The notes beneath the pieces are model-generated. The model ran no database searches. It saw nothing but the letters and a program-made list of their open reading frames with translations, and had not been told where the DNA came from. Positions 1-64,000 of a DNA stretch of 64,000 nt are shown in pieces. Numbering within the stretch: position 1 is the stretch's first letter; each line of letters starts with the position of its first letter. The translations under genes and the position numbers were made by a program. Source of the stretch: a virus; the IMG/VR virus record IMGVR_UViG_3300032070_000002, positions 1 to 64,000 of that record; one strand, 5' to 3'.

Positions 1-1
1 A

Positions 2-85
2 TGGGTTGATACAAACGATTCCAATAGAGTTTATTTACTTTTTAAAAGAGGAACCGGTGACCAAGTATTAGTTGAATTATCATAA
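2..85 (+). CDS. 3' end of a virion-region gene truncated by the window edge
   Basis: Open frame WVDTNDSNRVYLLFKRGTGDQVLVELS ending in TAA at 83-85. Confidence 0.55.
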   Translation, partial: WVDTNDSNRVYLLFKRGTGDQVLVELS

Positions 86-130
86 AGGAATTTAAAATGA
101 AGAAACAATTATATCAGCGTAGGGGGAGTA

Positions 131-517
131 ATGGCAGGTCATATAAGACCACAATGTAAAGTTGGTTATTTTATTAATCCATTAATTATAGGATTATACG
201 TAATAACTGAATTAACTTTTAAACCAACTAATATAGAATTTTTTATATCTAAAAATGACGGTTTAAAAACTTGGTTTTGCGAGGGTCATGGTTGGGTAGA
301 TGAATTTTTAAATCAAAATTGTTCAGCTTGGACGGGTAATTATAGTAATACATTTAGAGGAGATATGAAAATAGATAAATGTTTATATGCTTTTAATGCA
401 TCTGGAATAATTCAAGTTGAAGCTACTTTAGTTTCTATGAATAATAATGGATTTACTCTAAATTTTACAGTAGCGGGTAATACAGCATTTACTATAAGAT
501 GGAAAGCAAGTTTATAG
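131..517 (+). CDS. Hypothetical protein, virion region
   Basis: 128-aa ORF with GGGGGAG RBS. Confidence 0.6.
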   Translation: MAGHIRPQCKVGYFINPLIIGLYVITELTFKPTNIEFFISKNDGLKTWFCEGHGWVDEFLNQNCSAWTGNYSNTFRGDMKIDKCLYAFNASGIIQVEATLVSMNNNGFTLNFTVAGNTAFTIRWKASL

Positions 518-528
518 AGTAAATAAAA

Positions 529-816
529 ATGAGATTAAGAAAAAGTATAGATACTTATAATAATCTTCCCGTAGCAAATAATTTTATAGGCGACGTAAGA
601 AGAGTTTTAGATACAAATTTATTTTATGTTTGGTCTTCACAAAACTCTTCGGATACTTTAGCTAATTGGAAGTGTTTAGGAATAGACGTAGAAGCAATTA
701 TCTGGGGTTCAATTACGGGCGATATTGAAGACCAATTAGATTTAGTAGATAAATTAAATGAAAAAGTAACTGGACATTATGATACTGACTATAAAACATT
801 TATACTAGAAAATTAA
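529..816 (+). CDS. Putative fibre-associated virion protein
   Basis: WGSITGDIEDQLDL motif typical of phage fibre proteins; C-terminal YDTDYK resembles that of the next gene. Confidence 0.5.
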   Translation: MRLRKSIDTYNNLPVANNFIGDVRRVLDTNLFYVWSSQNSSDTLANWKCLGIDVEAIIWGSITGDIEDQLDLVDKLNEKVTGHYDTDYKTFILEN

Positions 817-834
817 GATTTAAGGAGGTGACAA

Positions 835-1299
835 ATGGCAGATTATAGAGTACCGGTATTAGAGAATTTTGAATGGCAACAACCCGTTAAGGATAGAATT
901 ACGCAAGCAACTTTAGAAGGTCTAACCCCCGCAAAAGGTGATAGATATTTACTTACAGATGGCGCTAACGATAAAAAAATTGCGTATTGTTCTAATGCTA
1001 CAGGTCCTGTATGGACATATACTATACCCTCAGAGGGAATGATAGTTTGGGTTAATGATGAAGATAAATACTACCATTATACGGGAGCGGCGTGGGCTGA
1101 GTATTTAGGACAACAGGGACCAACCGGTCCAACAGGCCCCCAAGGCGGAGCAGGTCCAACCGGGCCTCAAGGCGGAACAGGTCCTCAAGGTGGAACAGGC
1201 CCTCAAGGTGGAACAGGTCCAGCAGGTCCAACAGGACCAACAGGTCCAACAAATCAAACTTATGATGCAGATTATAAAGCGATAATAATAAGTTTGTAA
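835..1299 (+). CDS. DUF2793-like domain plus collagen-like fibre protein
   Basis: GDRYLL..IAY..W..P.EGMIVWV.DE..Y.YTG..W pattern; 16 Gly-X-Y triplets; AAGGAGGTGA RBS. Confidence 0.75.
1108..1251 (+). repeat. Collagen-like (Gly-X-Y)16 coding repeat (GPT/GPQ/GGT)
   Basis: Tandem 9/18-nt repeats such as ggtcctcaaggtggaaca. Confidence 0.9.
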
Positions 1300-16110: not shown

Positions 16111-18507
16111 ATGGCATATTCTATTGATATATTAGTAGGAGGAACAGCTTCAGCATCTTCTCAAAGTGGTGGATATGAAGCCACAAAAGGTTGCGATAAT
16201 AATGAAGTAACCAGATGGTCTACCAGTAATACCAATATGCCTTGTTGGTGGAAATATGACTTAGGTGTTGGAATAACTAAAAAAGTCGTAAAATTAAGAA
16301 TAAAACCAATGGTTTATCAAGGGCACGCTTTTTTGAAAGATTTTATTCTTCAAGGGTCGAATAATAATAGTGATTGGGTTAATATTTATACTGGTCAACA
16401 CGCTGATAATGAAAATTGGGAAGATTTTATTTTTACTAATATTAATTCGTATCGCTATTATAGAATATGGATTACGACTAATTGGAAACCTACGGGCGGT
16501 TCTACTATTTGGGAAATAGAAATGATGACGGATAATACTGTCTTTGAGGATTTCTCATTGGGAGCCGTTATAAAAAAGACAATTAATTTACAATATACAT
16601 TAAGTGCGTATACTTTTTGGAGAAATTATTTATTAAATTCTGTTTTACAGAAACCGTTGTCAGACGATTACTCCTTATCTGCTATATTAAAGAAGACTTT
16701 TTCTAGTTCATATTCATTACTTTCTAGCATTTTATTTGTAGAACGTAAAACGGATGTTATAGATTGGAATATAGCGGGAGAAATTTCTTTAGGGTTAGAG
16801 ACCGGCGGATTAAAAGTATTTTCCGGAATAGCAGAAATAACTAAAGTAATTGCATCCTTAAAAGATACCGGGTCTGCTTCAGATACTATAATTGATATAA
16901 ATAAAAACGGAATTAGTATATTTCCTGCTCCCGGAGATAGATTAGATATAGCTTTTAATAATACGGATAAATATACAACTTATAAATTTACTTCTCCGGT
17001 TCTAATTTTAGAACAAGATAAATTATCTATAGATGTTGATTCTGTAGCTACAGATGCGGAGGACTTAAATGTTAGAGTAGTTTTAAGAAGATTGACTTGT
17101 TATCCACCTTCTATAAAAAAGATAGAATTTTATAATAATTTAGTTAAACAAGGCACTACTATAGAACCTACTAATACTTTAAAAGTAAAAGTAATATTTA
17201 ATATAGAAATGAATGAAACTGCTAGTCCGACTATTGCTTTAAAGTTTGAAGACGGCACTACTCAAGATATAAGTAGCGGTAGTTGGACGCATACTAATTT
17301 AGAATACGATACATTTATAACAAATAATATAACTATAGCTAGTTCTAAAGTAGGTAAGGCGGTTATAGAAATTTCAGAGGTAATTGGACGTAATACCTTA
17401 CCTATGAATCCGGACGTATATTCTTCTGACTTTGATATAGAAGAAATAACAAGGATAGAATTTGAAAATAGTAATTTATATACTAATACGGCAAACAACG
17501 ATTTAGTATTAGATTATATACAAGCTACTCAAATGAAATTTTCTTTAGATAATGCTACTTGGAGTGCTTGGGAAGATTATGATACCTCAAAAACTATAGA
17601 TATTACTGACGTTTCTTTAGGAGGGAATAGCGTAGAAGGCGTTAAGACAGTTTATGTAAAATTTAAAACAAATAATGGCGAGTCTATAGCTTATTCTACT
17701 ACTATAAAATATTATTATGCCGCGTTAAGTTTTACTTTTGATTTAATTCAAATGGGTAATATTATAGGAGGTAATAATTATAGAGTTGAATTAGTTTACC
17801 CGGATAGTGTTGCTATAGTGCCATTAAAAAGTGTAAAGATTTATTTAAATGATGTTTTAACGATAGAAGATAAAATGCAAGATACGGTATATGGCGCTTC
17901 TATTAAAACTTGTTCGTCTTCTTTAAGAAAAATTACTTTATATGCAGGTTATGTATTAACTAGGAATGGCATAAAGTATACTATAGCAGAAGATACGGAA
18001 ATAATATTAGATGATATTCCTGCAGGAAATACGCATAGAATAGATTTAGTATACGTAGATTTAGAAGGTAATTTATTAGTTAAGAAAGGCGATTACGGTT
18101 TAACTGAAAATGCTTTACCTACTGCTACTTTATATCCGGTAGGTGCTTCGGTTAACACTTTTCCAAAAGCTCCGGAGGTTCAGGATGATTGGATTCCCCT
18201 TTATTATCTTTACGTACAATACGTGGGAGCTACTGATGATACTTCTAGAATTTCTATTAACTATACCGGCGATTTAAGACCTACAAGATTAATTTATTAC
18301 TTATCTAATTTAGAGGACGATGTTTATGAAGTAAAAGTAACGATAGAAGATATGGCAGGAAGAACGAAAGATGTAACTAAATCAATAACTACGTTATCTG
18401 TTCCAAGATTTGGTAGAATAAGAGCTTATACTAATAGCGGAAAGACGGTAGAAATAAATAGCGGCGATCCTACTACTCTTTCTACTATTTGGATTGTTGT
18501 AGAATAG
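16111..18507 (+). CDS. Tail protein with N-terminal discoidin (F5/8 type C) domain and Ig-like domains
   Basis: ASASS..GCDNN..TRW, W.KYDLG, F.LQGSNN..DW and YRYYRI motifs; MKFSLDN.TWS.W. Confidence 0.75.
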   Translation: MAYSIDILVGGTASASSQSGGYEATKGCDNNEVTRWSTSNTNMPCWWKYDLGVGITKKVVKLRIKPMVYQGHAFLKDFILQGSNNNSDWVNIYTGQHADNENWEDFIFTNINSYRYYRIWITTNWKPTGGSTIWEIEMMTDNTVFEDFSLGAVIKKTINLQYTLSAYTFWRNYLLNSVLQKPLSDDYSLSAILKKTFSSSYSLLSSILFVERKTDVIDWNIAGEISLGLETGGLKVFSGIAEITKVIASLKDTGSASDTIIDINKNGISIFPAPGDRLDIAFNNTDKYTTYKFTSPVLILEQDKLSIDVDSVATDAEDLNVRVVLRRLTCYPPSIKKIEFYNNLVKQGTTIEPTNTLKVKVIFNIEMNETASPTIALKFEDGTTQDISSGSWTHTNLEYDTFITNNITIASSKVGKAVIEISEVIGRNTLPMNPDVYSSDFDIEEITRIEFENSNLYTNTANNDLVLDYIQATQMKFSLDNATWSAWEDYDTSKTIDITDVSLGGNSVEGVKTVYVKFKTNNGESIAYSTTIKYYYAALSFTFDLIQMGNIIGGNNYRVELVYPDSVAIVPLKSVKIYLNDVLTIEDKMQDTVYGASIKTCSSSLRKITLYAGYVLTRNGIKYTIAEDTEIILDDIPAGNTHRIDLVYVDLEGNLLVKKGDYGLTENALPTATLYPVGASVNTFPKAPEVQDDWIPLYYLYVQYVGATDDTSRISINYTGDLRPTRLIYYLSNLEDDVYEVKVTIEDMAGRTKDVTKSITTLSVPRFGRIRAYTNSGKTVEINSGDPTTLSTIWIVVE

Positions 18508-41876: not shown

Positions 41877-41900
41877 TAAATAATAAAGATCGATAAGGAG

Positions 41901-41937: not shown

Positions 41938-41945
41938 TTAAAATT

Positions 41946-43429: not shown

Positions 43430-43850
43430 AAAACATCTTAATTATTGGCGTAAACGTAAAAGATGTATTATTTGTAAAGTAATATTAACTAGAAAAAATT
43501 TACGCCCTTGGATGAAAAGGTGTTACAGATATATTTGTAATATATGTGAAAGAAAAGGGTCTATATCTTACTATAGGGAACATCAATTGTCTTCTGGAAA
43601 TAAGTATTTTTCTAATATTAATAAACGGTCCTATCCTAAAGACGGTAAATGCGAAATTTGTAAAAGGAATAAAACCCTTAAAGGTAAATCTATTAGATTA
43701 GTTTACCACCACTGGAATAATAAAGACTTTTTGAAAGGTATTTGGACGTGCGTATATTGTCACGCTATGATGGAGTGTATAGAAAAAGGGCGTCATTTAG
43801 TTTATTTTAAACTTAAAAAATTAATAGAAAAATTAGAAGGTAAAAAATGA
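43407..43850 (+). CDS. HNH-like zinc-finger endonuclease
   Basis: CxxC pairs; CEIC..LVYHH..W.CVYCH. Confidence 0.65.
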   Translation: MLKKQLHKKHLNYWRKRKRCIICKVILTRKNLRPWMKRCYRYICNICERKGSISYYREHQLSSGNKYFSNINKRSYPKDGKCEICKRNKTLKGKSIRLVYHHWNNKDFLKGIWTCVYCHAMMECIEKGRHLVYFKLKKLIEKLEGKK

Positions 43851-44728: not shown

Positions 44729-44878
44729 GTGTAAAAGTTGTAAGTTTAGAATAAGATTTAAGGGCTATTTTTCGGAGAGATATAATTATAGTTGCGTATA
44801 TAATAGACGAAAGGAAAATTGGAATAAAGAATTAAGGTGTAATAAAGAAAACGGTTATTACGCATATCAGGGGAAGAA

Positions 44879-46726
44879 ATGAAAGATAAAGTATTTGTGC
44901 TATTTTCAGGAGGAGTAGATTCAGCGGGACTATTATTTAACCTTCTTGAAAAAGGTTTTGAGTGTTTTCCCATATATTTCAAATGGCGGACTTGTAACGT
45001 AGCTATAAAAGAAGTAAAAATTATAAATTGGTTCTATGAAATGTATAAAGATAAATACCCGTTATTTCATAAACCGGAAATTCATTTTGAAAGAGAAATA
45101 GCAGAAACAATAGATACTAAAGAAAACATTATGAGTAGAAATAGAATATTCCTTAAATGGTTGATAGATAGATGTATTAAAGAAAATATACATAACATAG
45201 GAATGGGCGAATACTCTTTTAAAAAAGCACCCGATATTTGGCAAGAGAATGATGGCAAAAATTGTTGGATTTATTATTGGGGTCCTCCAAATGTTGATTG
45301 TGACGCAAACGACTTACAAGGCTTTATAAATAAAAATAATCCTAAGGATTTTAAAATTAAACTTTGGACATTAGACGACTTCGGAATTGCTACCTTTAAA
45401 CACCATAGAGTAGAAATAGGAAGAAAAGTTATAGGCTATGATATGTTTAAAACAACTTGCCTTTTAAAAGGTACTCAAATACTGATGGAAAATTACTCAA
45501 TTAAATTTATTGAAGATATCGTAGTAGGCGATATTATTTTAGGATTACGGGGAAGTAAACTTATACCTTCTAGAGTTATAAGGTTATTTAAAAGGACTTC
45601 TAGCGTAGGCTCTTTAAAATATAATAAAAAAGAATTATTATCTATTACCGATAATCATAAGATATTACAAGTAGCAAAAGATTCTGAAAAAACGTATGTA
45701 ATTCCTTCTGAATTAGTGAGTACAATTAGGGTATACGATATTAATAATAGTCGTTTTTTAGATGATTGGTATACGGGTTGGTTAGCGGGTTATACCGAAG
45801 GAGACGGTTGTTTGCGGCAATTACCTAATAATTACGTATTAAGTTACCATTCAAAAGATATTCAATTATTAGAATTTGTAAATGGTTGTTTAACTCAATT
45901 TGGTATACCTAAATTAAATATTAAAATATATGCTACATATAGAGGGCATAATTTATATAAAATGGCTACCTGGAAAAAATCTACAATAAATAAAGTAAAA
46001 GAAGTTATTTCTTTTATAGATACGAAAGATTATATGAGAGGCTATTTAGCGGGTATATATGATGCGGAAGGTTCCAATCAAAATACTTGTAAACATATTT
46101 GTATAAGTAATTCTAATCCGGTAATACTAAGTAAAATAGAAAAGTTTTTGAAGTGTTTAAAGTATTCGTATAAAAAGAGGTTAGGGCATCCAAAAGGAAC
46201 GGGTAATTTATTCAGTAATAACGGTAAAAGATATTTATCTAAAAGAGATTTATACTTAATTTGTATGCCAAATTATATTAAATTTAATATAGAGTGTAAA
46301 CCGGTGTTAAAAAGAAAAATTAAATATACTTCTACTACTTGGAAATTGAAAGATCGAATTTGCAATTTTAAATACATAAACAATATAAAGGATAATCAAG
46401 TTGTTTACAATTTAGAAACAGAAACTGGAAATTATATAGCAAATGGTATAATTGTACATAATTGTTGCGGTAAAGGAGGAAACGGCCCCGATTGTGGAGG
46501 CCTATATCAGCAGGATTATTTATGCGCAGAAAGACACGTAGCAATGTTAAAAGTTTTTGGATATGACAACACATTTTATTTAAAGGATCCTAAATTTAAT
46601 CCTTACTTTATTGAGTATTGTGTTCAAATGAATTATTTACCGGGTATTCTTTGGACACTTAAAAATAATAAAAAGGCTTTAAGAATTTCAAAATTAAATT
46701 TAATTAAAATATTAAAAGAATATTAA
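44879..46726 (+). CDS. queC: Divergent QueC-like PP-loop ATPase with LAGLIDADG intein
   Basis: LFSGGVDS, SRN, DC, and TTC-C...CG...CAER after intein removal. Confidence 0.7.
   Translation: MKDKVFVLFSGGVDSAGLLFNLLEKGFECFPIYFKWRTCNVAIKEVKIINWFYEMYKDKYPLFHKPEIHFEREIAETIDTKENIMSRNRIFLKWLIDRCIKENIHNIGMGEYSFKKAPDIWQENDGKNCWIYYWGPPNVDCDANDLQGFINKNNPKDFKIKLWTLDDFGIATFKHHRVEIGRKVIGYDMFKTTCLLKGTQILMENYSIKFIEDIVVGDIILGLRGSKLIPSRVIRLFKRTSSVGSLKYNKKELLSITDNHKILQVAKDSEKTYVIPSELVSTIRVYDINNSRFLDDWYTGWLAGYTEGDGCLRQLPNNYVLSYHSKDIQLLEFVNGCLTQFGIPKLNIKIYATYRGHNLYKMATWKKSTINKVKEVISFIDTKDYMRGYLAGIYDAEGSNQNTCKHICISNSNPVILSKIEKFLKCLKYSYKKRLGHPKGTGNLFSNNGKRYLSKRDLYLICMPNYIKFNIECKPVLKRKIKYTSTTWKLKDRICNFKYINNIKDNQVVYNLETETGNYIANGIIVHNCCGKGGNGPDCGGLYQQDYLCAERHVAMLKVFGYDNTFYLKDPKFNPYFIEYCVQMNYLPGILWTLKNNKKALRISKLNLIKILKEY
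45458..46462 (+). mobile_element. Intein (335 aa) with LAGLIDADG homing endonuclease
   Basis: CLLKGT start; T.NH block B; LAGYTEGDG and LAGIYDAEG; VYNLE..NY.ANG..VHN|C end. Confidence 0.95.
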
Positions 46727-48387: not shown

Positions 48388-51300
48388 ATGGAACAAGACA
48401 TAAAACCGGATAATTGTATTAAGTGCGGCCTTTGGAAGACTAGTTGTGTAGTAAACTATCAAGGACAATTCTTTGCATATAGAGTTATGGGAACCGGTCC
48501 TCAAAATGCTAAAGTTATATTTATAGGAGAAGCTTTAGGACAAGCCGAAACAATTAATCAAAAACCGTTTGTAGGAGATGCGGGCGATACTCTAAATATC
48601 GCCTTAAAAGAAGCTAATATAAATAGGGAAGACGTTTATATAACAAATACTTGTAAGTGTTTTTACAGTCCTAATGTATTAGTATTTACTTCAAAAGGAT
48701 GGAAAATGCTTGGAAAGATACGTAAGGACGATTTAGTATTAACTCATAAAGGACGATTTAGAAGAGTTATAGCCCCTTTAAAAATAAAGGTACATCCGGA
48801 CACTACTTTTTTTACTTGTTATCTTAAGTCTAACGGCGGTAATCCCTATAAAATTACCGTTACCGGAGATCATAAATTTTTAACAAATAAGGAATGGACT
48901 AAAGTTAGCGACTTACGAATAGGGGATAGGGTAAGAGTTCTTGCACAAAAATGTATTCAATGCGGTTCCTTATTTTATTCGGATTATAGGCAAACTCAAC
49001 TTTGCTCCTTAGAATGTACTAAGAAATGGAACGGTATTAGAGGTGCCCGTCAAAACAGAGTTCAAAATATTAGAGATAATATTTCTAAAAGTATGAAAGA
49101 ATTATATAAAAAAGGAATAAGAAACGGATTTAAAGATACTATTAATTTTCGTAGAAAATTAGACGGTAGCTTAAATGTTATAGGTAGAAACGGGGTAGGC
49201 GAAAAAGAACTATACGAATTATTAACTAAGAATAGGTACGAAGTAAAGCGCCAAAAATTAATAGCGGATAGATATTTTGCAGATTTTTATTTACCTAAAT
49301 TGAATATAGTAATAGAGGTGTGGAATAGTAGTTATAGAAGTATGATAGATAAAAGAATATGGTATGAACAAAGAGGTTATAAATTTTTAGATTATCATTA
49401 TTCAATAATTTTTAGATATCCGGAAGTAATTTTAACGGAAATTAGAAATTTAGAAAAAAATGATAATCACGAATTTAACTTTATAGATACCTTATTAATA
49501 GATAAAAAAGGGATTACGCCGAGACGAAAAAGCGTATTTTCTTTATCGGTAGTAGAAGACGAATCTTTTATAGCAGGGGGTTTAGTTTCGCATAACTGTC
49601 GTCCTCCTGAAAATAGGCCGCCTAAAACAATGGAAATAAAATGCTGTCTTCCTTTTTTATTAGAAGAAATTAGAAATATAAGCCCAAAAATTATATGTAC
49701 TTTAGGAAGTGTAGCGTTAGAAGCAATATTAAAACGTAAAGGAATATCAAATATTAGAGGTAATATATACGAAACCGAAATAGAGGGATTAAAAGTTAAA
49801 GTTATTCCTACCTATCATCCGGCCTATGTTTTAAGACGTCCCGAATATCCTAATTTAAAAGTAGACTTTCATAAAGATATAAAGTTAGTTAAAGAAGTAA
49901 GCGATAATTTAGATTATAAAAAAGAAAAGCTTCCTACCTATTACTGTACTACTCCTAAGGTAGAAGATATTTTAATATATATAGATAAAATTAAAAAAGT
50001 AGGCTTATTTGGGTACGATATAGAAACGGAAGGTTTTAACTTTTTAAAAGATAGAATCATATCTATAGCCTTAAGTTGCGTCGTACAAGAAGCTATAGCT
50101 TTTTATTTGATAGATTATACCCCGGATGAACAAGATAAAATATTTGCGGGATTAAAAGAAATATTAGAATCAAAAGAACTTCTTAAAATAGGTCAAAATT
50201 TAAAATTTGATAATAAGTTTTTTAAAACATACGGTATTGAAGTTAAACTACCCTTATTTGATACTATGTTAGCACATTTTTTAATAGACGAAAATAGTTC
50301 TCACGGTTTAAAAGATTTAGCTTATAAATATACGGATATGGGTGGATATGAAGAAAACTTTGAAAATATATTTAAAGAATTAAAAGGTAAAATGAAAAAA
50401 GATTTAATAGAAAGTTTAAAAGAAACAAAGAAAAACTCTTTAGAAGTATATACTAAATTATTACAAGAAGGATTAGAAAAGATAGATAATTTTTCTATAG
50501 TACCTAAAGAAGTTTTATTACCGTATAACGCCTCTGATGTTGATTGTACTTTAAGGATTTATTATGCATTAAAAGATTTAATAGAAAAAGAAGAATTGAC
50601 TAAAGTATACTATTATATTATGATACCTTTACTAATAGTATTAACGGAAACGGAATATAGCGGTATTCAAATAGATACTAACTACCTTAATATTTTATCA
50701 AAAGATTTACAAGATAGAATAGAAGATATACAATTTCAAATAAATAGTAGGCCGGAAATAAAAAAAGTAGAAGAACTTTTACCTAGTTTAATTAAAAGTA
50801 AAAAAATAGAAGATATTAAATTTAATATTAATTCTCCTAAACACCTTCAAGTCTTATTGTATAAAGTTTGTAATTTACAACCTATTAAACAAATAAAAAC
50901 CGGTTATTCAACGGATGAGGCTACTTTAAAAACATTACAAGAAAAAAGTGAAATAGTAAAGTTAATTATGCAATATAGAACGATCAATCACGATTTTACT
51001 ACGTATGTAGAACAATTAAGAAGTAGTTTAGATGAAAACGGAAAATGTCATACGGATTATATGCAACACGGCGCTGTTAGCGGTAGAGTAATTTCTCATA
51101 AACCTAACTTACAAAATATTCCTAGGGATTCTAATATTAAAAAATTATTTATACCGGATAAAGGGTGCGTAATAATATCTGCGGACTATGCTCAAATTGA
51201 GTACAAAGTATGGGCTAACTATTCTAATGATCCTCAAATGTTAGAGGATATTAGAAATGGGTTAGATATCCATTCGGAAGTTTGTTGTTTAGTGTGGCCT

Positions 51301-51975
51301 CACTTATATAAAAAAGTAGGCGACAAACAATATTTACATATTCTTACGGGAGAAATAAAAAGTAAAGTAAGCGCGGAACATAGAGTAAAAGCTAAACAAG
51401 TGGTATTTGGATTAATATACGGTAGAGGAATACCTAGTTTAGTAAAGGATTTAGGAATAACGGAATTAGAAGCTATAGCAATTGTTAATTACGTGTTAGG
51501 AAAATATCCTAAAGCTAAATTATGGCTAGAAAATCAAAAGAAGGATGTAAAGAAGTATAAACGAGTAAAAGATTTATTTGGTAGAATTAGAAGGTTACCG
51601 GAAATAGATAGTAAGGATAATGAAAGAGTAGCAGAAGTTATTAGACAATGTTGTAACGCACCTGTTCAAGGCGGCGCAGCGGATATTACTAGTATAGCTA
51701 CTATTAGAGTATATAACTTAATTAAAAAATTAGAAATGTTAATGAGATTAATTTTAACTATACACGATTCTTTAAAATATTCTACACCAGTAAAAGAAAT
51801 AGATAAGGGTATAGAATGTATGAAAAAAGGAATGTGTTCTAGCATTCCGGGAGTAACTTTTCCGCTAGAAATAGAAATAGAGATAGGACCAAATTGGTAT
51901 GATTTAATTTCTTTAGAAGAATTTAATAAAGATAGAAATAAATACTTAAAGGAATGGAACTTACTTGAAGTATAA
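48388..51975 (+). CDS. polA: Family-4 uracil-DNA glycosylase (with intein) fused to family A DNA polymerase with 3'-5' exonuclease
   Basis: UDG: CxxC, IGEALG, PFVG.AG, KC|RPP, TYHPAY. Exo: DIET, QNLKFD, YNASD. Pol: PNLQNIP, ADYAQIE, KAK..FGLIYG, IHDS. Confidence 0.93.
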   Translation: MEQDIKPDNCIKCGLWKTSCVVNYQGQFFAYRVMGTGPQNAKVIFIGEALGQAETINQKPFVGDAGDTLNIALKEANINREDVYITNTCKCFYSPNVLVFTSKGWKMLGKIRKDDLVLTHKGRFRRVIAPLKIKVHPDTTFFTCYLKSNGGNPYKITVTGDHKFLTNKEWTKVSDLRIGDRVRVLAQKCIQCGSLFYSDYRQTQLCSLECTKKWNGIRGARQNRVQNIRDNISKSMKELYKKGIRNGFKDTINFRRKLDGSLNVIGRNGVGEKELYELLTKNRYEVKRQKLIADRYFADFYLPKLNIVIEVWNSSYRSMIDKRIWYEQRGYKFLDYHYSIIFRYPEVILTEIRNLEKNDNHEFNFIDTLLIDKKGITPRRKSVFSLSVVEDESFIAGGLVSHNCRPPENRPPKTMEIKCCLPFLLEEIRNISPKIICTLGSVALEAILKRKGISNIRGNIYETEIEGLKVKVIPTYHPAYVLRRPEYPNLKVDFHKDIKLVKEVSDNLDYKKEKLPTYYCTTPKVEDILIYIDKIKKVGLFGYDIETEGFNFLKDRIISIALSCVVQEAIAFYLIDYTPDEQDKIFAGLKEILESKELLKIGQNLKFDNKFFKTYGIEVKLPLFDTMLAHFLIDENSSHGLKDLAYKYTDMGGYEENFENIFKELKGKMKKDLIESLKETKKNSLEVYTKLLQEGLEKIDNFSIVPKEVLLPYNASDVDCTLRIYYALKDLIEKEELTKVYYYIMIPLLIVLTETEYSGIQIDTNYLNILSKDLQDRIEDIQFQINSRPEIKKVEELLPSLIKSKKIEDIKFNINSPKHLQVLLYKVCNLQPIKQIKTGYSTDEATLKTLQEKSEIVKLIMQYRTINHDFTTYVEQLRSSLDENGKCHTDYMQHGAVSGRVISHKPNLQNIPRDSNIKKLFIPDKGCVIISADYAQIEYKVWANYSNDPQMLEDIRNGLDIHSEVCCLVWPHLYKKVGDKQYLHILTGEIKSKVSAEHRVKAKQVVFGLIYGRGIPSLVKDLGITELEAIAIVNYVLGKYPKAKLWLENQKKDVKKYKRVKDLFGRIRRLPEIDSKDNERVAEVIRQCCNAPVQGGAADITSIATIRVYNLIKKLEMLMRLILTIHDSLKYSTPVKEIDKGIECMKKGMCSSIPGVTFPLEIEIEIGPNWYDLISLEEFNKDRNKYLKEWNLLEV
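48658..49596 (+). mobile_element. Intein (313 aa) with zinc finger and Vsr/DUF559-like PD-(D/E)XK nuclease
   Basis: CFYSP start; VLTHKGR; VTGDHKF; CIQC/CSLEC; EKELY..Q...ADFY.P...VIEV; SHN|C end. Confidence 0.92.
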
Positions 51976-56507: not shown

Positions 56508-57463
56508 AAGAATACGATATAACTTATACGTCCGATTTTCAATTAGATTTAGATAATAGAATAGACGATTTTATAAAATCCCTAAATCAAATAAAAGAAA
56601 TTGCTAATAAGGGCAAACTTTTAATTATAGGCGGGGATATTTATAGAGATAGAAGGCCGCACCCTAAAGAGATGAATATATTCCGAGATTTTATAAAGAA
56701 TATAAGCGTCCCAGTAGAAATAGTAATAGGTAATCACGACGAAAATTTAGATGTTACTACATTAGATGAATTCTTAAAATTTAATATAAAAGAAGTAACC
56801 TTACATAGACCTCCTTTTATATTAAAATATAGCGGGTTAAATATATATTTAGACCATACTATTATTGAAGGGGCTAAAATGGGCCCTTCGGACTTTATAT
56901 TAAATAATAAAAGGGTAAAACCGCTTAAAAATATATTGGATAATAAATGTGATTTTTATTTAATAGGGGATATACATAAAGCTCAAGTAGTAAATAAAGA
57001 ACCTCCGGTTCTATATGCGGGTAGTATAGAAAGAGAAGATTTTGGAGAACGAAATGAAGGTAAATATGTTATACTAATAAATTCTAATACGAAGGAATAC
57101 GTTTATAAGCCATTAAATATTAGGCCTATGTATCAAATAAATTTAGATTTATCTTCGAGTAATGAGCAATTTAAAGAAGGAAAAATAGTTCCTCCCCAAG
57201 TAGAAAATGCAATAGTAAAAGTAGTTATTACGGGAACTAAAGAACAAATAGAAAAATATAATGAAGCTAATTTAAAAGAAAGTTTAAATAAAACTTTTTC
57301 TTACAAAATACAGTATAATGTCTTAAAGGAAATAAAAAGTAGAAATACTAATATAAACGAAGGAAGATCGATAGAGGATTGTTTTAAGGAATATGCAAAA
57401 GAGCATAAATTTAACGAATACGAGTTAGAAAAAGGAATGGAAATACTAAGCTATGAATGTTAA
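56504..57463 (+). CDS. sbcD: SbcD/Mre11-like nuclease (gp47-like)
   Basis: SD, GGDIY, IGNHD, IGDIH and YAGS.ER.DFGE motifs. Confidence 0.9.
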   Translation: MKEYDITYTSDFQLDLDNRIDDFIKSLNQIKEIANKGKLLIIGGDIYRDRRPHPKEMNIFRDFIKNISVPVEIVIGNHDENLDVTTLDEFLKFNIKEVTLHRPPFILKYSGLNIYLDHTIIEGAKMGPSDFILNNKRVKPLKNILDNKCDFYLIGDIHKAQVVNKEPPVLYAGSIEREDFGERNEGKYVILINSNTKEYVYKPLNIRPMYQINLDLSSSNEQFKEGKIVPPQVENAIVKVVITGTKEQIEKYNEANLKESLNKTFSYKIQYNVLKEIKSRNTNINEGRSIEDCFKEYAKEHKFNEYELEKGMEILSYEC

Positions 57464-57770
57464 AAGATTGATTCTTCATAATTTTTTAAGTCATAAAGAA
57501 GTGGATATAGATTTATCTAAGGAAGGTATTTACAATATTATTGGAAAAACGGGTGCGGGAAAGAGTGCTATTAGGGATGCACTTACATATACGCTATTTG
57601 GAAAAGGCAGGTATGATGACCAAGAAAAGTATATTTCTGATTATGAAAAAGAAATGTTTGTAGTTGTAGAATTTGAACAAAATGAAAAAACTTTTAGAGT
57701 AACAAGAAAAAAGGTTAAGGGAGAAACTACTAAGTTAGAAGTAGAGGAATTAAATGAAATTCGGAAATAG
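57453..57770 (+). CDS. sbcC: SbcC/Rad50 ATPase, N-terminal fragment
   Basis: L.NFLSH, IIGKTGAGKS and DALTYTLFG motifs; ends after 105 aa. Confidence 0.85.
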   Translation: MNVKRLILHNFLSHKEVDIDLSKEGIYNIIGKTGAGKSAIRDALTYTLFGKGRYDDQEKYISDYEKEMFVVVEFEQNEKTFRVTRKKVKGETTKLEVEELNEIRK

Positions 57771-57936: not shown

Positions 57937-58210
57937 TGAAATTTTAGATAAATTAAATTTTTTAATGGCTAATACCTATTTAATGATAGGAAAGGATTTA
58001 AAAACCGTAATGGATTTATATAGTGAAAGAAAAAAATTAGAACGGCCTACGCCTACTGAAATAGAATTAAAATATTCGGAAGATATCGCCGCGGTAAAGA
58101 AACACGCTTTTAGCAACAATCAATTTAAAATTAGTGAAGATAGAAAATGGGTTATAGTAGAAGATAAGTATCATATTTATAAAATACCCTACGAATTATG
58201 GATAAGATAG
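57920..58210 (+). CDS. Hypothetical protein between the sbcC fragments
   Basis: 96 aa; AAGGA RBS; overlaps both neighbours. Confidence 0.55.
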   Translation: MEKLLNEILDKLNFLMANTYLMIGKDLKTVMDLYSERKKLERPTPTEIELKYSEDIAAVKKHAFSNNQFKISEDRKWVIVEDKYHIYKIPYELWIR

Positions 58211-59442
58211 GAAATACTCTAAAGGAAACGCAGGAAGCGCTAAATAAACTTATAGGTTTTGATTACGATACTTTTAGGTGTTCCGCGTGTTTTGAACAAG
58301 GCGAATCTAATAGTTTTTCAAAGTTAACTCCTAAAGAATCTAAACAAGTAGTTATGAAAATTTTACAATTAGGTAAATTAGAAATAAGAGAACAATTATG
58401 TAAAGATAAAGTAACTACTTTTTCTATGGAGTATAATAATATTTTTAAGGAATTAGAAGTAACAAAAACTTTAGAAGAAGTTATTGAGGATGATACGCCT
58501 ATTAAGGAAAGAATAAGTATATTAGAAAAATTAATAACTAATATACAAGTAGAAATAGAGAAAGCAAAAAAAAGTATACCTTACGAAATAAAATTAAACG
58601 AATTAGAAACAAGTATGGAAAGATTTGATAAACTAGATAAATGTCCGACTTGTTTACAATCTATTAATGAAAATCATAAAAAAGAAATCCTACAAAAATA
58701 TAAAGAAGCTATTCGTATTACAAAAAATTCTTTTAATTATGAAATTAGTCCTAGTCTATTTATAGATAATCAAAATCCAAGGCTATCTAAATTGAATTAT
58801 GAATTAGGAGAATTGAAAAATAAATTAAAAAATATTGAGGAAAAGAAATTAAAGCGTACTAAATTAAATACTAAAAAGGAAGAGTTACAAAATAAGTTAT
58901 ATGCTTTAAAAAGGGACATAGATACGTATAAAAAACTATCGGAAGCTTTTGGTAGAAATGGAATTCCTACAAATATTATAGAAAATACTCTTCCTGAGAT
59001 AGAAAGTATAGTTAATGAATTATTAGAATTATTAGATATAGATATGCAAATAAAAATAGATACCCAAAAAGAATTAAAAAGTGGCGGCCTATCAGATACT
59101 TTAGATATTAACATAGTTACTAATAATATAGTTAGGCCATACTTTGGATTTTCAGGAGGAGAAAGATTTATTATAGATTTATCTTTAAGAGTTGCCTTAA
59201 GCGTAATTTTACTTAGACGAAAAGGATTAAATAATAGTACGTTAATAATAGACGAAGGAATGGGATCATTAGATGAGGCTGGCAGAAATAGGGTAGTAAA
59301 ATTAATTAAAGTAATAAAAGATAAATTTGGATTTAAAAAGATTTTAGTTATTTCACATATGTTAGATGTTCGGGATAATATAGAAAATAAAATAGTAGTA
59401 GAAAAGATAAACGGTATTAGTAAATTGACTTATAATTTATAA
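58198..59442 (+). CDS. sbcC: SbcC/Rad50 ATPase, C-terminal fragment
   Basis: Q-loop FEQG, coiled coil, zinc hook CPTC, signature FSGGE, Walker B LIIDE, GSLD, VISH. Confidence 0.88.
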   Translation: MDKIGNTLKETQEALNKLIGFDYDTFRCSACFEQGESNSFSKLTPKESKQVVMKILQLGKLEIREQLCKDKVTTFSMEYNNIFKELEVTKTLEEVIEDDTPIKERISILEKLITNIQVEIEKAKKSIPYEIKLNELETSMERFDKLDKCPTCLQSINENHKKEILQKYKEAIRITKNSFNYEISPSLFIDNQNPRLSKLNYELGELKNKLKNIEEKKLKRTKLNTKKEELQNKLYALKRDIDTYKKLSEAFGRNGIPTNIIENTLPEIESIVNELLELLDIDMQIKIDTQKELKSGGLSDTLDINIVTNNIVRPYFGFSGGERFIIDLSLRVALSVILLRRKGLNNSTLIIDEGMGSLDEAGRNRVVKLIKVIKDKFGFKKILVISHMLDVRDNIENKIVVEKINGISKLTYNL

Positions 59443-59460: not shown

Positions 59461-60597
59461 ATGAGAAATTCTTGGAATTTAAAAGATATTGACAATCTTA
59501 AAAAAATGATGAAACAAAATATTCATCCAATAGAAATAGCGAAAACATTACAGCGGTCTTATGATTCAGTATGTGGAAAAATAAAATCAATTAAAAGAGA
59601 AGAAAAAATAGGAATTAAACCATATGAAAAAACAGAAGGAAAATTCAAGAACGAAGAAATAGTAGAAGAAACCAAAAAATATTTTGAGGCTGCAAAAGGC
59701 ATTATTCATAAATATGATGATTTATATAAAAATATTAAATTAAAGACCTCTTTTTCATCTGCAAAACAAACAGAAGACCAGGTATTATTATTTTCTGATA
59801 TGCACACTGGTATGATTAACAAAGCCCCTATTACCGGAGAAATAACATATAATCCAGAAATTCAGAAAAAAGAATTACAAACTTTAATGGAAGGATTATA
59901 TAGATTTTATCAATTATATAAACCTTCTTATAATATAGAAACTTTTTATATTTTTTCTTTAGGAGATTTAATTACCAATGATAGAATTTATGAAGGACAG
60001 AAAATGGAAATCGCTTTTGGCGTAGGTATACAAATTACAGAAACATTAGAATATGTTAGTGATATGATTAGAAAATTATTGGAAATTTATCCCAGAATAG
60101 TTTATATTAATATAGTCGGAAATCACGGCAGAACTACGCCTCAGCCCATTAGCGAAGATGCTACGAGCAATTTTGAATATTTATTGGGAATATCATTAAA
60201 AGAAAGATTTGCTGGCAATAAAAGAGTAGAAATAATCCTCCCAGACGATTATTCTTATTCTTATACTATAAAAAATCATAGATATTTATTAGCTCACGGA
60301 AATACTATTAGTGGTTCAACATTAAATTCAATAGAAAGGGCGGCAAAAGATATTGCTAATTTAGTAGAAAGAGATTATTATGATGTTATTACAATTGGGC
60401 ATTTTCATAGTTGTTATGAATTGCCGAGTATTTCTCCTTCAACTACTCTTTTAGTTAATGGATGTTTTATTTATAAAGATGATTATGCCTATACCAAATT
60501 AAGAAAACATTCTACTGCTAAACAGTATTTATTTAATGTTTCAAAAAAATCAGCAATGCACAATTTACAGAAGGTGGATTTAAGGTGGAATAAATGA
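59461..60597 (+). CDS. HTH-fused calcineurin-like metallophosphoesterase
   Basis: SDMH.G, LGD, GNHGR, AHG and GHFH motifs. Confidence 0.85.
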   Translation: MRNSWNLKDIDNLKKMMKQNIHPIEIAKTLQRSYDSVCGKIKSIKREEKIGIKPYEKTEGKFKNEEIVEETKKYFEAAKGIIHKYDDLYKNIKLKTSFSSAKQTEDQVLLFSDMHTGMINKAPITGEITYNPEIQKKELQTLMEGLYRFYQLYKPSYNIETFYIFSLGDLITNDRIYEGQKMEIAFGVGIQITETLEYVSDMIRKLLEIYPRIVYINIVGNHGRTTPQPISEDATSNFEYLLGISLKERFAGNKRVEIILPDDYSYSYTIKNHRYLLAHGNTISGSTLNSIERAAKDIANLVERDYYDVITIGHFHSCYELPSISPSTTLLVNGCFIYKDDYAYTKLRKHSTAKQYLFNVSKKSAMHNLQKVDLRWNK

Positions 60598-60947: not shown

Positions 60948-61604
60948 ATGATAGAAAAGTTTTTAGAAAGTACTAATTTAAGTGAAAAAGCAAATTGGAA
61001 AGATATAAGGGATTTTGTAAAAGAAGCTAATGAATTAAATGTTTTAGGAGTTTGTACATACATATATTGGAGCGGTATAGTAGATAAATATTTAAAGGAA
61101 GGGATAAAGAAAATTTACGTTATAGGATTTTATACGGGTTCAAAAGAGTTAATAGAAAGAGATTTATCCTTAGTTTCGGATACTAAAGCAGATGAATATG
61201 ATGTTGTTTTACCTTTAGCTTATTTTAGCGTAGGAAATATTTCAAAAACAGAAGAACTTTTATTAAAGGTAAGAAAAGCTACAAAGGATAAAGTATTAAA
61301 AGTAATCATAGAAACAAATATTTTAAGGGAAGACCCTAAACCGGAAGAAAAAATAAAGAGTGCCGTTGAATTAGTAAAAGAAATAGGCGCAGATTTTATA
61401 AAAACTAATACCGGCCGATTTCCAAGAAAGATCGATATAGTAGAGGATATTAGGTTGATTAAAAAGTTTACTAAATTGCCTATTAAGGCCGCGGGCGGTA
61501 TTAAAACGTATGAACAAGTAAAACAATTAATTGATTTAGGAGTTAGTAGAATAGGCACCTCTACCGCAAAACAAATTATAGAGGAAGAAAATGGAATCCA
61601 ATAA
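60948..61604 (+). CDS. deoC: Deoxyribose-phosphate aldolase
   Basis: ADEYDVV, LKVIIET, GADFIKT.TG, IKAAGGIK and RIGTS motifs. Confidence 0.9.
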   Translation: MIEKFLESTNLSEKANWKDIRDFVKEANELNVLGVCTYIYWSGIVDKYLKEGIKKIYVIGFYTGSKELIERDLSLVSDTKADEYDVVLPLAYFSVGNISKTEELLLKVRKATKDKVLKVIIETNILREDPKPEEKIKSAVELVKEIGADFIKTNTGRFPRKIDIVEDIRLIKKFTKLPIKAAGGIKTYEQVKQLIDLGVSRIGTSTAKQIIEEENGIQ

Positions 61605-62193
61605 TCCCGAAAATAAGCCGGTTGAAATAGAAGATAATTATCCTTACATTACATATCTTATAGGCGCAATGGAGAAAACCGCTGAGAAAGATGATGGTTC
61701 TGCTAAAAGGGAAGATGTAGAAAGAGAATTATTATTAAGAAATGTATATCCTATTAATCCCGTAAAACTAGAAGCATTTAAAACGAATATGAGTGTTGAA
61801 GAATCTAAAGAAAAAATGATAGGCTGGATTGCTTCCGGTAATAGAGAACTTTTAAAAGAGAAATCCGTTGCTATTTGGTTTGGAATAGATTACGTCGCGG
61901 AAAACGGTCAACTAATACATATCCCGGGCGATTTTGATTATGTAAGAATGAGCGATTGGATTACTTTAGTTATAAATAGGGGCGATAAACCTTGCGGTAG
62001 TTTTGGAGAAAGTGCATACGGCGCTATTTTAGGAAAACCTCTTTACATTATTTCTGAAATGCCTAAAAAGGAATTACCTAAAAGTTTATTTCAATGGATG
62101 TGTATAGTTGACGGAGAACATTTTGAAAATCTTTCTCAGTATTTAAAATATATTGATGAACAATATAAACTTAAAAGAAAAGAAGAAAAATGA
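61591..62193 (+). CDS. Nucleoside 2-deoxyribosyltransferase/N-glycosidase-like protein
   Basis: YL.G.ME, INP, D..V..SD and G...E..Y...LGKP motifs. Confidence 0.65.
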   Translation: MESNNPENKPVEIEDNYPYITYLIGAMEKTAEKDDGSAKREDVERELLLRNVYPINPVKLEAFKTNMSVEESKEKMIGWIASGNRELLKEKSVAIWFGIDYVAENGQLIHIPGDFDYVRMSDWITLVINRGDKPCGSFGESAYGAILGKPLYIISEMPKKELPKSLFQWMCIVDGEHFENLSQYLKYIDEQYKLKRKEEK

Positions 62194-62518
62194 TTAAAGT
62201 TAAGGTTACTTTAATACAGGCGGATATATTAGTAGTAGGTAAGTATTCTATTTCCGAAGAGGCTTGTTTAGGAATGATAAAAAGGTTTAAAGAAAATACT
62301 GAACCTGTTTTAGTTAGATTAGGTAAAACTCCTTTAGTAATAGGTAAGTTAGTAGGTTTAGAATATAATAAAGAGAAAAAGGAATTATTAGGTGTTATTG
62401 ATTTATATATGGATTTTAATGCAGGCGCACAAATATTACAACAATTAGATACGCCCGACGGAATCAGAATATTAGATAGTAAAATAAAGGAAATTACAAT
62501 GACCCCGGGAGGAAAAGG

Positions 62519-62890
62519 ATGAGATTATCGGATAAACAAAAAGAAGAATTAAAAAATCAATTTGAAGAGGTAATAAATAACTTTAAAGGGCATACGGATT
62601 TTCCTTATATATTACTTCAAATGATGAAGGTGCATAGTGATAAAAGTAATGACTATGCCCAAGATGAAAGCCCCTTTTCTAATATAGAACTTTGCGAACG
62701 CGCGGGTTTTGAAGCGTGGAAGGGCGTCGTTATAAGATTGGGGGATAAATATAGTAGACTATTGAATGCATTAGCGGGTAAGTTATTTAAGTGCGAAGGA
62801 ATAGAAGATGCTTTTATAGATAATGCAAATTATTCGGTAATAGGACTTATTGAATATCGGAAGGTAAAAGAAACCAATGGATCTAAATAA
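62519..62890 (+). CDS. DUF1599/Nmad1-like nucleotide-modification-associated protein
   Basis: KSNDYA..PF.N, RLGDK.SR and E.IED...D.ANY motifs. Confidence 0.75.
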   Translation: MRLSDKQKEELKNQFEEVINNFKGHTDFPYILLQMMKVHSDKSNDYAQDESPFSNIELCERAGFEAWKGVVIRLGDKYSRLLNALAGKLFKCEGIEDAFIDNANYSVIGLIEYRKVKETNGSK

Positions 62891-63068
62891 ATCGTGGTTA
62901 AAACTCATAGAGTTTTGCAAACGCGAACGTTACGGCGAGCTTAAGGTAAAAATTCAAGATGGGGTACCGGTATCTTTACCCGCTCAAATTATAAAAAGAG
63001 AAAACTTAGATGGATCAATCACTACTACGGAAATATCAAAGCCGATAGATTTGACGAAGGAGGAATAG
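62877..63068 (+). CDS. DUF2292 (YezD)-like protein
   Basis: YGELKVKIQDG.P motif. Confidence 0.55.
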   Translation: MDLNKSWLKLIEFCKRERYGELKVKIQDGVPVSLPAQIIKRENLDGSITTTEISKPIDLTKEE

Positions 63069-63242
63069 TGTATTTCAGAAAAGAAAAATTTACGGAGGTA
63101 ATAATATTAAAAAGATATAGTAGTGATATACTATCGGATGATATTAAAGAATTAGCAAAAGATAATATAATAGTAGATTTACAATTTACGGGCGACGGAA
63201 AGAATACATTTAATGCTTTAATACTTTATAGGAAAAAATAAA

Positions 63243-63827
63243 ATGGAAAAATACGAAACATTTAATAATGAAATAAATTTAATCAAATCTGAAACAATAA
63301 AAGACTATGTTATAAAGACTCTTAAAGAAACGCCAGAAATATTTTGGAAAATACCCGCTTCCTCTACCGGAAAATATCATCCCGAATGTACAAATAAAGA
63401 AGGAGGTTTAATTATACACGTAAAAAGGGTAGTATATATTTGCGATAGATTATCTTTCGGCTGGAACATAACCGACCTTAATAGAGATATGGTAATAGCC
63501 TCAAGTATTCTACACGACATAGCTAAGTGTGGAAAAGATAGCGGTATCTATGAAAATTATGTTAATCATCCTATAACTGCGGCTAATATGTTTAAGAAAA
63601 CCGTAAACTTTAATAGTCAAGATATAACACCTATAAATAAAACTATTATTATTAGGATAGCAAATTGTATTAATTATCATATGGGACTTTGGACTCCTAA
63701 ATCTATAGTAAAACCCTTATCTCAATATACATCCTTAGAATTATTGGTTTATACTTCAGATTATATGGCTTCTACTAAAACGTTAGTTACTCCGGTAGAT
63801 GGAAGTTATACTGTAAAGGATATATAA
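63243..63827 (+). CDS. HD-domain phosphohydrolase
   Basis: PASSTGKYH, GGL..H, LHDIAK, HMG and SDY motifs. Confidence 0.88.
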   Translation: MEKYETFNNEINLIKSETIKDYVIKTLKETPEIFWKIPASSTGKYHPECTNKEGGLIIHVKRVVYICDRLSFGWNITDLNRDMVIASSILHDIAKCGKDSGIYENYVNHPITAANMFKKTVNFNSQDITPINKTIIIRIANCINYHMGLWTPKSIVKPLSQYTSLELLVYTSDYMASTKTLVTPVDGSYTVKDI

Positions 63828-64000
63828 TGAATACCCTAATTAAAATATTTGATATTTTAGCTTCTATACTTACTGTTTTAAGCTTATATTTAATTTCTAA
63901 GTCTTATAAATGGTGGATACTTTATTGTTTTTCTAGCATACTTTTTACTATTGTTTGCTTTTATAATAAAATATACGGTTTAACATTAATGGGAGTATGC
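63827..64000 (+). CDS. Small membrane protein (PnuC-like), truncated by the window edge
   Basis: Hydrophobic ORF MNTLIKIFDILASILTVLSLYLI...WW. Confidence 0.45.
   Translation, partial: MNTLIKIFDILASILTVLSLYLISKSYKWWILYCFSSILFTIVCFYNKIYGLTLMGVC

Follow-up and report, generated by a model that had tools for sequence, protein, structure and literature searches.

Pervasive depletion of TpG and CpA dinucleotides in the genome of a tailed phage from sediment

Genomes carry dinucleotide signatures towards which imported genes ameliorate, as recognized by Karlin and by Lawrence and Ochman. Such signatures serve phage–host assignment and the detection of imports, and as a rule they are taken to reflect the host passively. 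Here we describe the genome of a tailed phage, IMG/VR virus record IMGVR_UViG_3300032070_000002 (90,229 bp), in which the dinucleotides TpG and CpA (hereafter TG and CA) are depleted throughout. This strong, private signature reverses the CpG-poor, TG/CA-normal pattern of the relatives. The window that we analyzed is the 64,000-nucleotide stretch of bases 1–64,000 of this record; genome-wide tests used the full record (G000).

Compared with the described systems, this genome is an unusual case of genomic signature, amelioration and word avoidance. As in a classical genomic signature, the bias is pervasive, coding-independent and uniform, and a few probably imported genes appear to deviate from it; it differs in that TG and CA are affected and CG and TA spared, the reverse of the usual under-representation of TA and/or CG and of the pattern in 131 other viral loci. 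CpG depletion by deamination of 5-methylcytosine, seen in vertebrates and in CpG-poor prokaryotes, phages and the relatives studied here, likewise is a context-specific decay of one dinucleotide to its transition products, but the present genome is its mirror image, with TG/CA depleted and CG and TA the relative gainers. Restriction-site avoidance in phages has its parallel in the loss of CATG, TCGA, GATC, CTAG and GTAC, with other word sets purged in the relatives; it is insufficient for the TG/CA loss, as all 32 contexts are low and a dinucleotide model fits longer words. Very-short-patch (VSP) repair reportedly left a footprint on oligonucleotide abundance in E. coli, as Bhagwat and McClelland are said to have described in 1992. 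The likeness lies in depleted substrate-like words (CTGG and CCAG) and an enriched product (CCGG); the difference is that no Vsr or cognate C5-methyltransferase was found in this record, that words unrelated to CCGG are affected and that net GC falls. Finally, Dpd systems carry out 7-deazaguanine modification of phage DNA. The phage encodes FolE2, QueD, QueE, a QueC-like protein and a DpdA-like protein of the tRNA-guanine transglycosylase (TGT) fold, and departs from these systems in that its DpdA is too divergent for the Pfam TGT model, its QueC is divergent and carries an intein, and a phosphoribosyltransferase (PRTase) and a Dam-like protein whose motif IV is altered are added.

Extent and anatomy of the depletion

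The record comes from a sediment metagenome, has a GC content of 30% with strong A>T and G>C skew, and encodes tailed-phage proteins: an HK97-fold capsid protein, a family A polymerase, a primase-helicase, a ligase, a UvsX-like recombinase and SbcCD. We called the longest non-overlapping open reading frames (ORFs) without a gene finder, and 142 of the 146 (97%) lie on the plus strand. The feature under study is the following.

1–64,000, continuing to 90,229, not assigned to a strand: genome-wide TG/CA depletion, assessed by odds ratios, codon nulls and 10-kb windows

Odds ratios in the window were 0.69 for both TG and CA, as against 1.50 for CC, 1.25 for GG, 1.20 for CG and 1.08 for TA. The depletion was evident at codon positions 2-3 (CA 0.61, TG 0.62) and at the codon junction 3-1 (CA 0.42, TG 0.61, CG 1.68), where nnCAnn was the strongest single effect; it was also present in intergenic DNA (CA 0.66, TG 0.72). 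At positions 1-2, which are fixed by the amino acid, the ratios were 1.09 for CA and 0.85 for TG. Thus, about one third of the expected TG/CA is gone at freely changeable positions. We compared the 142 plus-strand ORFs of the 90-kb genome with two nulls, one that holds the protein sequence and draws synonymous codons from the third-position composition, and one that shuffles synonymous codons within each gene and so tests junctions only. The observed count of TG+CA, 5986, fell below the 8715 expected with amino acids fixed (z -49.5) and the 7374 expected under codon permutation (z -37.4). The preliminary description, made from the letters of the window alone, had proposed a long-term, context-specific pressure against TG and CA; its four hand counts of CG versus TG+CA were reproduced exactly, and the avoidance survives control for amino-acid and codon usage, the TG+CA ratios not approaching 1 under these controls.

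Codon choice illustrates the effect. In twofold-degenerate pyrimidine-ending codons the share of C is 7% before A, 35% before G and 55% before GG, as compared with 29% before A and 42% before G in a syntenic relative of 98.6 kb (G001). Both members of the dinucleotide shift: the A of NCA codons is replaced, and likewise the C of NNC|A junctions. The depletion is uniform along the genome (0.60–0.73 per 10 kb), with a strand-symmetrized odds ratio (rho*) of TG/CA of 0.64–0.73 in all nine 10-kb windows and a TG+CA ratio below 0.92 in 139 of 142 ORFs (genome-typical ratio 0.687). Accessory genes, defined as those with no homologue in the compared genomes G001–G003, are nearly as biased as core genes (0.70 and 0.68).

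All 32 NTGN/NCAN words are below expectation, in a graded manner from 0.30 to 0.91. The lowest class is S-TG-R, strand-symmetrically (CTGG 0.35 and CCAG 0.30; GTGA 0.44 and TCAC 0.52), and CTGC/GCAG is spared most (0.91). The amino-acid-normalized bias of a 4-mer tends to match that of its reverse complement (r 0.88) despite the location of 97% of genes on one strand. This symmetry, together with the intergenic signal, indicates that the cause acts on double-stranded DNA and not on mRNA or translation. After fitting a dinucleotide model, the strongly deviant 5-mers were those containing TCGA, GATC, CATG, CTAG or CTTA/TAAG, and homopolymer or G/C-run words (AAAAA, AGGGG/CCCCT); no TG/CA-containing 5-mer was strongly deviant except those with CATG or GATC. 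A description at the dinucleotide-to-trinucleotide level is therefore adequate for the TG/CA bias, which resembles an influence of the nearest neighbour on rates more than recognition of a site. Separately, GCAGA/TCTGC and AGAAG/CTTCT were over-represented.

Relative to the amino-acid-fixed null, TG+CA changed by -2729, TA by +1710, CG by +577 and CC+GG by +309. The CpG/TpA excess noted in the preliminary description is present (CG 1.37-fold and TA 1.19-fold over this null), but it is mostly the arithmetic complement of the TG/CA loss, as a single transition turns TG or CA into CG or TA. Extra enrichment was seen for the trinucleotides CGG (2.57), CCG (1.94) and GCG (1.89), and, against the same null, CCGG, GCGG, CCCG and GGCG were enriched about 3.2–3.3-fold. 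CCGG (n=198) is indeed conspicuous for an AT-rich genome, as had been remarked, at 4.9 times the mononucleotide expectation and 3.3 times (3.29) the amino-acid-fixed null, yet it equals its trinucleotide (Markov) expectation.

To place the signature among relatives, we collected capsid homologues from 43 IMG/VR loci, 40 metagenome loci and 1 locus of a metagenome-assembled genome (MAG), and our comparison set comprised 131 viral loci, all independent and 4 kb or longer, which together span 1.9 Mb; the capsid relatives P0002 (90%) and P0003 (86%) stand outside this set. Across the 131 loci TG/CA had a median of 1.05 and extremes of 0.89 and 1.39, and the value of 0.68 in this genome lies 4.1 SD below the mean; the TG/CA signature is private to this genome among them. 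Close relatives (capsid identity 62–87%) have a TG/CA rho* of 0.92–1.03 and a CG of 0.44–0.74, the ordinary CpG-poor pattern, and G001 has a TG/CA of 0.95 with near-neutral synonymous positions (0.82–1.05). GC is 30% here versus 35–37% in the closest relatives, and third-position GC 0.21 versus 0.24–0.28; against these relatives TG+CA is about 40 per kb lower and TA about 30 per kb higher. Densities per kb are 72 TG+CA, 128 TA, 25 CG and 64 CC+GG, as compared with 97–114, 99–108, 10–13 and 45–47 in GC-matched relatives, so that the CG density equals that of G001 and is about twice that of the GC-matched relatives. At the protein level, pairwise comparison with G001 gave 359 losses and 265 gains of H, Q, C, W and M residues, numbers confounded by the GC shift; where two relatives agree, the branch leading to this genome showed no amino-acid-level avoidance of TG/CA (32 losses versus 35 gains).

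We found no precedent for TpG/CpA depletion in the literature on phages or prokaryotes. In a survey of 138 organisms from the three domains, nnCAnn was preferred and nnUAnn avoided at codon junctions (PMC2585594). The junction pattern here is reversed, with nnCAnn most avoided and nnUAnn and nnGGnn favoured, which lowers the probability that an ordinary cellular or translational signature is at work. Methods that predict hosts or bin contigs from composition would place this phage wrongly.

The 7-deazaguanine module and short-word avoidance

The preliminary description had named a guanine-modification system of the phage, acting at TG, among the candidate causes. The genes in question and their neighbours are listed below.

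34,720–35,166, plus strand: QueD (PTPS family; Pfam)
36,339–36,770, plus strand: PRTase, kept beside Que genes in G001 and in IMGVR_UViG_3300033147_000359 (L204)
37,926–38,567, plus strand: QueE-like radical SAM enzyme
40,040–40,873, plus strand: FolE2 GTP cyclohydrolase
41,946–42,686, plus strand: divergent DpdA-like protein, predicted TGT-fold TIM barrel
42,683–43,429, plus strand: helix-turn-helix (HTH) protein with a faint, sub-threshold Trm1 (TRM) match
43,847–44,728, plus strand: predicted methyltransferase fold of the Dam-like type; motif IV is non-canonical (TPT for DPPY)
44,879–46,726, plus strand: divergent QueC-like PP-loop protein with a LAGLIDADG intein (PF06508 match, 15 bits)

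The preQ0 pathway set, FolE2, QueD, QueE and QueC-like, is thus all encoded. The sub-threshold match to Pfam QueC (PF06508) covers only the first ~35 residues, the N-terminal PP-loop, and the L204 homologue is intein-free. In Pfam, the DpdA-like protein had no match, to TGT or otherwise, nor had the Dam-like protein, and the HTH protein had sub-threshold HTH and TRM matches only; PDB sequence searches with these three gave nothing significant. The AF2 model of the DpdA-like protein (pLDDT 92) found tRNA-guanine transglycosylases as its top 40+ Foldseek matches in the PDB (E 1e-7, TM 0.57–0.69), and among 80 other viral loci its family adjoins QueD 33 times and QueE 43 times. The dpdA assignment made earlier is thus supported at the level of predicted fold and context, and what had been called a second methyltransferase is confirmed to have a Dam-like predicted fold.

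The link between this module and the bias, tempting as it is, fails. None of the 80 loci of the DpdA-like family is biased (TG/CA 0.89–1.24). L204 (26.8 kb, GC 29%) has a related replisome in much the same order and almost the same module, with QueE, PRTase, FolE2, the Dam-like protein (48% identity), QueC-like and DpdA-like genes, with a TG/CA of 0.96, a CG of 0.60 and a CC/GG of 1.53. In L205 and L206 the DpdA-like and Dam-like genes are adjacent and TG/CA is 1.10, so the bias is absent from all three loci that combine the two genes. G003, which encodes a homologue of the HTH/Trm1-like ORF, likewise shows a normal signature. Thus, the module is not sufficient for the bias, and the comparison of relatives with and without the dpdA/methyltransferase genes gave no co-occurrence of bias and module. 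G001, unbiased, encodes FolE2, QueD, QueE, a bona fide QueC and PRTase at 35.7–45.2 kb (L052–L056), and neither the TGT Pfam model nor the profile of the DpdA-like family detected a DpdA in it; G001 may load a deazapurine through the nucleotide pool. A small ORF of the present genome (46,803–47,051) is conserved in L204 with 72% identity.

Short words show a second, distinct pattern.

287–290, not assigned to a strand: the only CATG, from word counts against nulls

This single copy in the 90-kb genome compares with 146 expected under the amino-acid-fixed null and 226 under the mononucleotide model. Under the former null, TCGA occurs 20 times versus 190 expected and GATC 53 times versus 201; CTAG and GTAC are likewise low. 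The purge of CATG, TCGA and GATC is classic restriction-type avoidance and is separate from the TG/CA signal: the loss of CATG explains roughly 290 of the ~2700 missing TG/CA dinucleotides, and depletion is confined to palindromic words for CATG, TCGA and GATC but not for TG/CA. The purge also argues that the guanines of these words are not shielded by modification. In addition, CTTA/TAAG and CTTAAG are rarer than the dinucleotide model predicts (TAAG 671 versus 876; CTAAG/CTTAG 87 versus 213).

A relative with purges of its own is contig 3 (L061, L202 and L203) of the MAG G006, labelled Candidatus Hodarchaeota, an 81-kb viral contig with 66% capsid identity. Three 20-kb samples of it contained no CATG or GTAC, 0–2 GATC and 0–1 CTAG. 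Ten cellular contigs of the same MAG had 36–91 of each word (per 20 kb, CATG 38–59 and GATC 70–91). Since the cellular contigs lack the purges of the viral contig, the Hodarchaeota label, the sole cellular one among the relatives, is not credible as a host, and the viral contig is probably mis-binned or from a virus of another host.

Candidate causes of the TG/CA depletion

The explanation that we favour, tentatively and at somewhat short of even confidence, is a lineage-specific, context-dependent transition or repair bias acting on double-stranded DNA, with imports that have not yet ameliorated. Under this proposal, C-to-T transitions (G-to-A on the other strand) would be fastest at CpA/TpG and slowest at CpG and CpC/GpG, a neighbour dependence opposite to that of the relatives, in which CpG decays. 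The bias would be supplied by the replication or repair environment, either the enzymes of a new host or the phage's own diverged replisome. Acting for long enough to turn over all synonymous sites, it would have removed about one third of TG/CA at third positions, junctions and intergenic DNA and brought GC down to 30%, with a relative enrichment of CG, CC/GG and TA; later imports from unbiased phages would remain as islands. A changed neighbour dependence of C-to-T transitions fits best with the graded contexts, the nearest-neighbour level of the effect, its strand symmetry, coding independence and uniformity, and the low GC with TA as the largest gainer in counts. The depletion, its independence of coding, its strand symmetry, its restriction to this lineage and its lack of association with the 7-deazaguanine module are observed; we infer a mutational rather than a selective nature, and the enzymatic source likewise.

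Several points weigh against this explanation. The odds factor of 3–4 per site fits a 3–4-fold rate asymmetry and a scaled selection coefficient of ~1.2 alike. We detected no deaminase, mismatch glycosylase, Vsr or cytosine methyltransferase of the phage that could be named as the source. The homologous replisomes of the relatives (PolA 51% and primase-helicase 63% identity) come without the bias, and neither the extra enrichment of CGG/CCG nor the sparing of CTGC/GCAG is predicted by a simple 3′-neighbour rule. The group's response to short-word selection, exemplified by CATG, raises the prior for a selective cause.

The polymerase gene, which bears on these alternatives, is the following.

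48,388–51,975, plus strand: family A DNA polymerase with an N-terminal UDG-family domain; TG/CA 0.56, the most depleted long gene

An intein at 48,658–49,605, which starts with C and ends with HN followed by C, splits the UDG-family domain, is missing in G001 and itself shows the full depletion (TG/CA 0.52). Its central domain has a sub-threshold match to the DUF559/Vsr-like PD-(D/E)XK family (17.5 bits versus the Pfam cut-off of 20.6). The nuclease is most simply a homing endonuclease, but it offers the sole hint of a T:G activity encoded by the phage. Searched in six frames, the entire record yielded no Vsr (PF03852), C5-methyltransferase (PF00145), N4/N6-methyltransferase or D12 methyltransferase, and no dCMP or cytidine deaminase, HhH-GPD glycosylase or thymidylate-synthase-like enzyme.

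Selection is the rival that we take most seriously, while still considering it unlikely: a host defence, or another nuclease or sensor, whose degenerate and very short target contains TG/CA would impose a slight cost at each occurrence, and the phage would have lost these dinucleotides wherever its proteins permit, which would extend restriction-site avoidance to the level of dinucleotides. To our knowledge, no restriction or defence system with a 2-bp target is known. This genome and its relatives do purge short words, as the G006 viral contig illustrates; both members of TG/CA move, the S-TG-R contexts are depleted most and on both strands alike, and a junction pattern opposite to the rules of the 138 organisms (PMC2585594) makes an ordinary cellular signature unlikely. 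The TG/CA depletion, however, is partial and graded (0.3–0.9), unlike the near-complete loss of CATG, is not accompanied by avoidance at the amino-acid level, and leaves no standout 5-mers beyond those with CATG or GATC. Improbable, in our estimate, is a biased T:G mismatch correction of the VSP type by a host or phage enzyme, which would restore C opposite G at TpG-like sites, most strongly near CCGG, and so drive TG/CA to CG. After the purged palindromes, CCAG and CTGG are the lowest words, and their shared transition product CCGG is enriched 3.3-fold, with GCGG, ACGG, CCCG and CCGC enriched as well; the preference for C before GG over C before A has the same direction, and the proteins of the phage include a family A polymerase, a ligase, a UDG-family domain and the DUF559/Vsr-like intein domain that G001 lacks. 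Such repair should raise GC, yet GC is below that of the relatives and the gain of TA exceeds that of CG; GTGA and TCAC, which differ from CCGG by two changes, are depleted to an equal degree, CTGC is spared, and the DUF559 match is sub-threshold and located where the homing endonuclease of an intein is expected, with PF03852 and PF00145 unmatched in six frames.

Very improbable is that the phage's own 7-deazaguanine system, with its DpdA-like, Dam-like and Trm1-like proteins, acts at TG and that its cost, mutagenicity or recognition drives the loss. The block at 40,919–46,726 (DpdA-like, HTH/Trm1-like, HNH, Dam-like and QueC-like) has no homologue in the unbiased G001, the DpdA-like protein has the expected fold and QueD and QueE neighbours, and the HTH/Trm1-like and HNH ORFs have no homologue in any other module compared. 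Set against this are TG/CA values of at least 0.89 in all 80 DpdA-like loci, with L204, L205 and L206 normal as well, the ordinary signature of G003 with its HTH/Trm1-like homologue, and the purge of CATG, GATC and TCGA, whose guanines seem unprotected. We regard selection on UG and CA at the level of translation or mRNA, through codon-pair bias or avoidance of RNase targets, as the least credible of these causes: nnCAnn at the codon junction is the strongest single effect, but the bias extends to intergenic DNA, is reverse-complement symmetric and runs opposite to the codon-pair preferences of the 138 organisms (PMC2585594), and no tRNA genes were found in the window.

A mutational cause would implicate a replication or repair activity with unusual neighbour dependence, a selective one a defence whose target is extremely short. 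In both cases phage genomes would be under pressure of a new kind. A bolder and rather doubtful idea is that an enzyme reading a single dinucleotide step rewrote the whole genome, be it a CpA/TpG deaminase or repair enzyme or a TG/CA-centred defence nuclease or sensor. If true, such an enzyme's footprint would be to prokaryotic viruses what those of APOBEC and ZAP are to animal viruses, and this genome would be the first recognizable fossil record of it.

Islands, record and host

The preliminary description had listed seven islands apparently free of the bias. We compared the TG+CA ratio of each gene with the genome-typical ratio under Bonferroni correction and, independently, computed a codon-context likelihood ratio between a model of this genome and a model of its relatives. 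No single gene passed Bonferroni, and three genes reached p ~1e-3 versus 0.3 expected by chance (35,179–35,667, 24,607–25,296 and 59,461–60,597). The least native genes by likelihood ratio were 21,980–22,402, 35,179–36,206, 24,607–25,296, 28,362–30,199, 59,461–60,597, 25,967–26,188 and the capsid gene. The seven proposed regions are given below.

16,111–16,560, plus strand: weak island at the N-terminal end (150 codons) of a tail-region ORF of 798 aa (0.86 versus 0.57 in the rest of the gene)
21,980–22,402, plus strand: island, ratio 0.91, GC 45%, lowest likelihood ratio in the genome, no Pfam match
24,607–25,296, plus strand: island, DUF2786/DUF7168 protein, ratio 1.03, p 1e-3, CG 0.71
28,362–30,799, plus strand: island of three ORFs, pooled ratio 0.86 (186 observed versus ~150 at the genome-typical ratio)
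35,179–36,206, plus strand: island of two ORFs, a YdcK-type beta-solenoid protein and one of no assigned function, pooled ratio 0.97
38,567–39,160, plus strand: RNA-ligase-family ORF, not an island, ratio 0.78, normal likelihood ratio
59,461–60,597, plus strand: island, ratio 0.92, p 2e-3, CG 0.70

Four or five of the proposed islands thus hold modestly, the first being weak and the RNA-ligase-family ORF unconfirmed. The best single gene is 35,179–35,667 (ratio 1.05, p 7e-4). Set beside the syntenic G001, the islands fall at probable insertions or replacements: 21,980–22,402 and 24,607–25,296 have no homologue in G001–G003, and 35,179–36,206 fits a later insertion, because the flanking QueD and PRTase are adjacent in G001. 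The gene at 59,461–60,597 probably represents an allele replacement rather than an insertion, to judge by a 40% homologue present in G001. The claim that recently acquired genes lack the bias is true for only a handful, since most genes with no G001–G003 homologue carry it in full.

The 90-kb genome is probably complete. It has a 214-bp terminal direct repeat (1–214 versus 90,016–90,229, 100% identical); IMG/VR classes it as linear, and the CheckV completeness estimate is 78%. Megablast against GenBank phages with 7 kb gave no match, tblastn with PolA gave best matches of at most 30% identity, and an IMG/VR single-protein search with PolA recovered no relative. Low-depth contigs identical or nearly identical to the window also occur in a second sediment study, with 13 differences listed, 7 of them in one repeat. 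A sequencing artefact is all but ruled out as the source of the depletion, which respects codon positions in a sequence that recurs in two sediment studies. At 35,385–35,465, a short repeat region inside the beta-solenoid ORF, contigs of both runs break and variants accumulate, probably through cross-mapping of repeats.

The phage encodes a Sigma70_r2 protein above the Pfam cut-off, which suggests a bacterial host. An Asgard host was considered and rejected: it rests only on the MAG label, the cellular contigs of that MAG do not share the word purges of its viral contig, and the phage has a sigma-70 region 2.

Other genes depart from the arrangement in G001. SbcC/Rad50 is split into a 105-aa Walker-A piece (57,453–57,770) and a 414-aa remainder (58,198–59,442) with small ORFs between them; in G001 the parts are separated by just ~300 bp. 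An M16 (insulinase-type) peptidase (36,772–37,929) lies between PRTase and QueE and is missing at that position in G001; its nearest atlas clusters are exclusively viral and give no host lead. Finally, a run of ORFs at 60,948–63,827, comprising a DeoC-family aldolase, a DUF1599 protein (nucleotide modification associated domain 1; sub-threshold match of 19.9 bits, cut-off 25) and an HD-domain protein, fits a deoxynucleotide-handling module.

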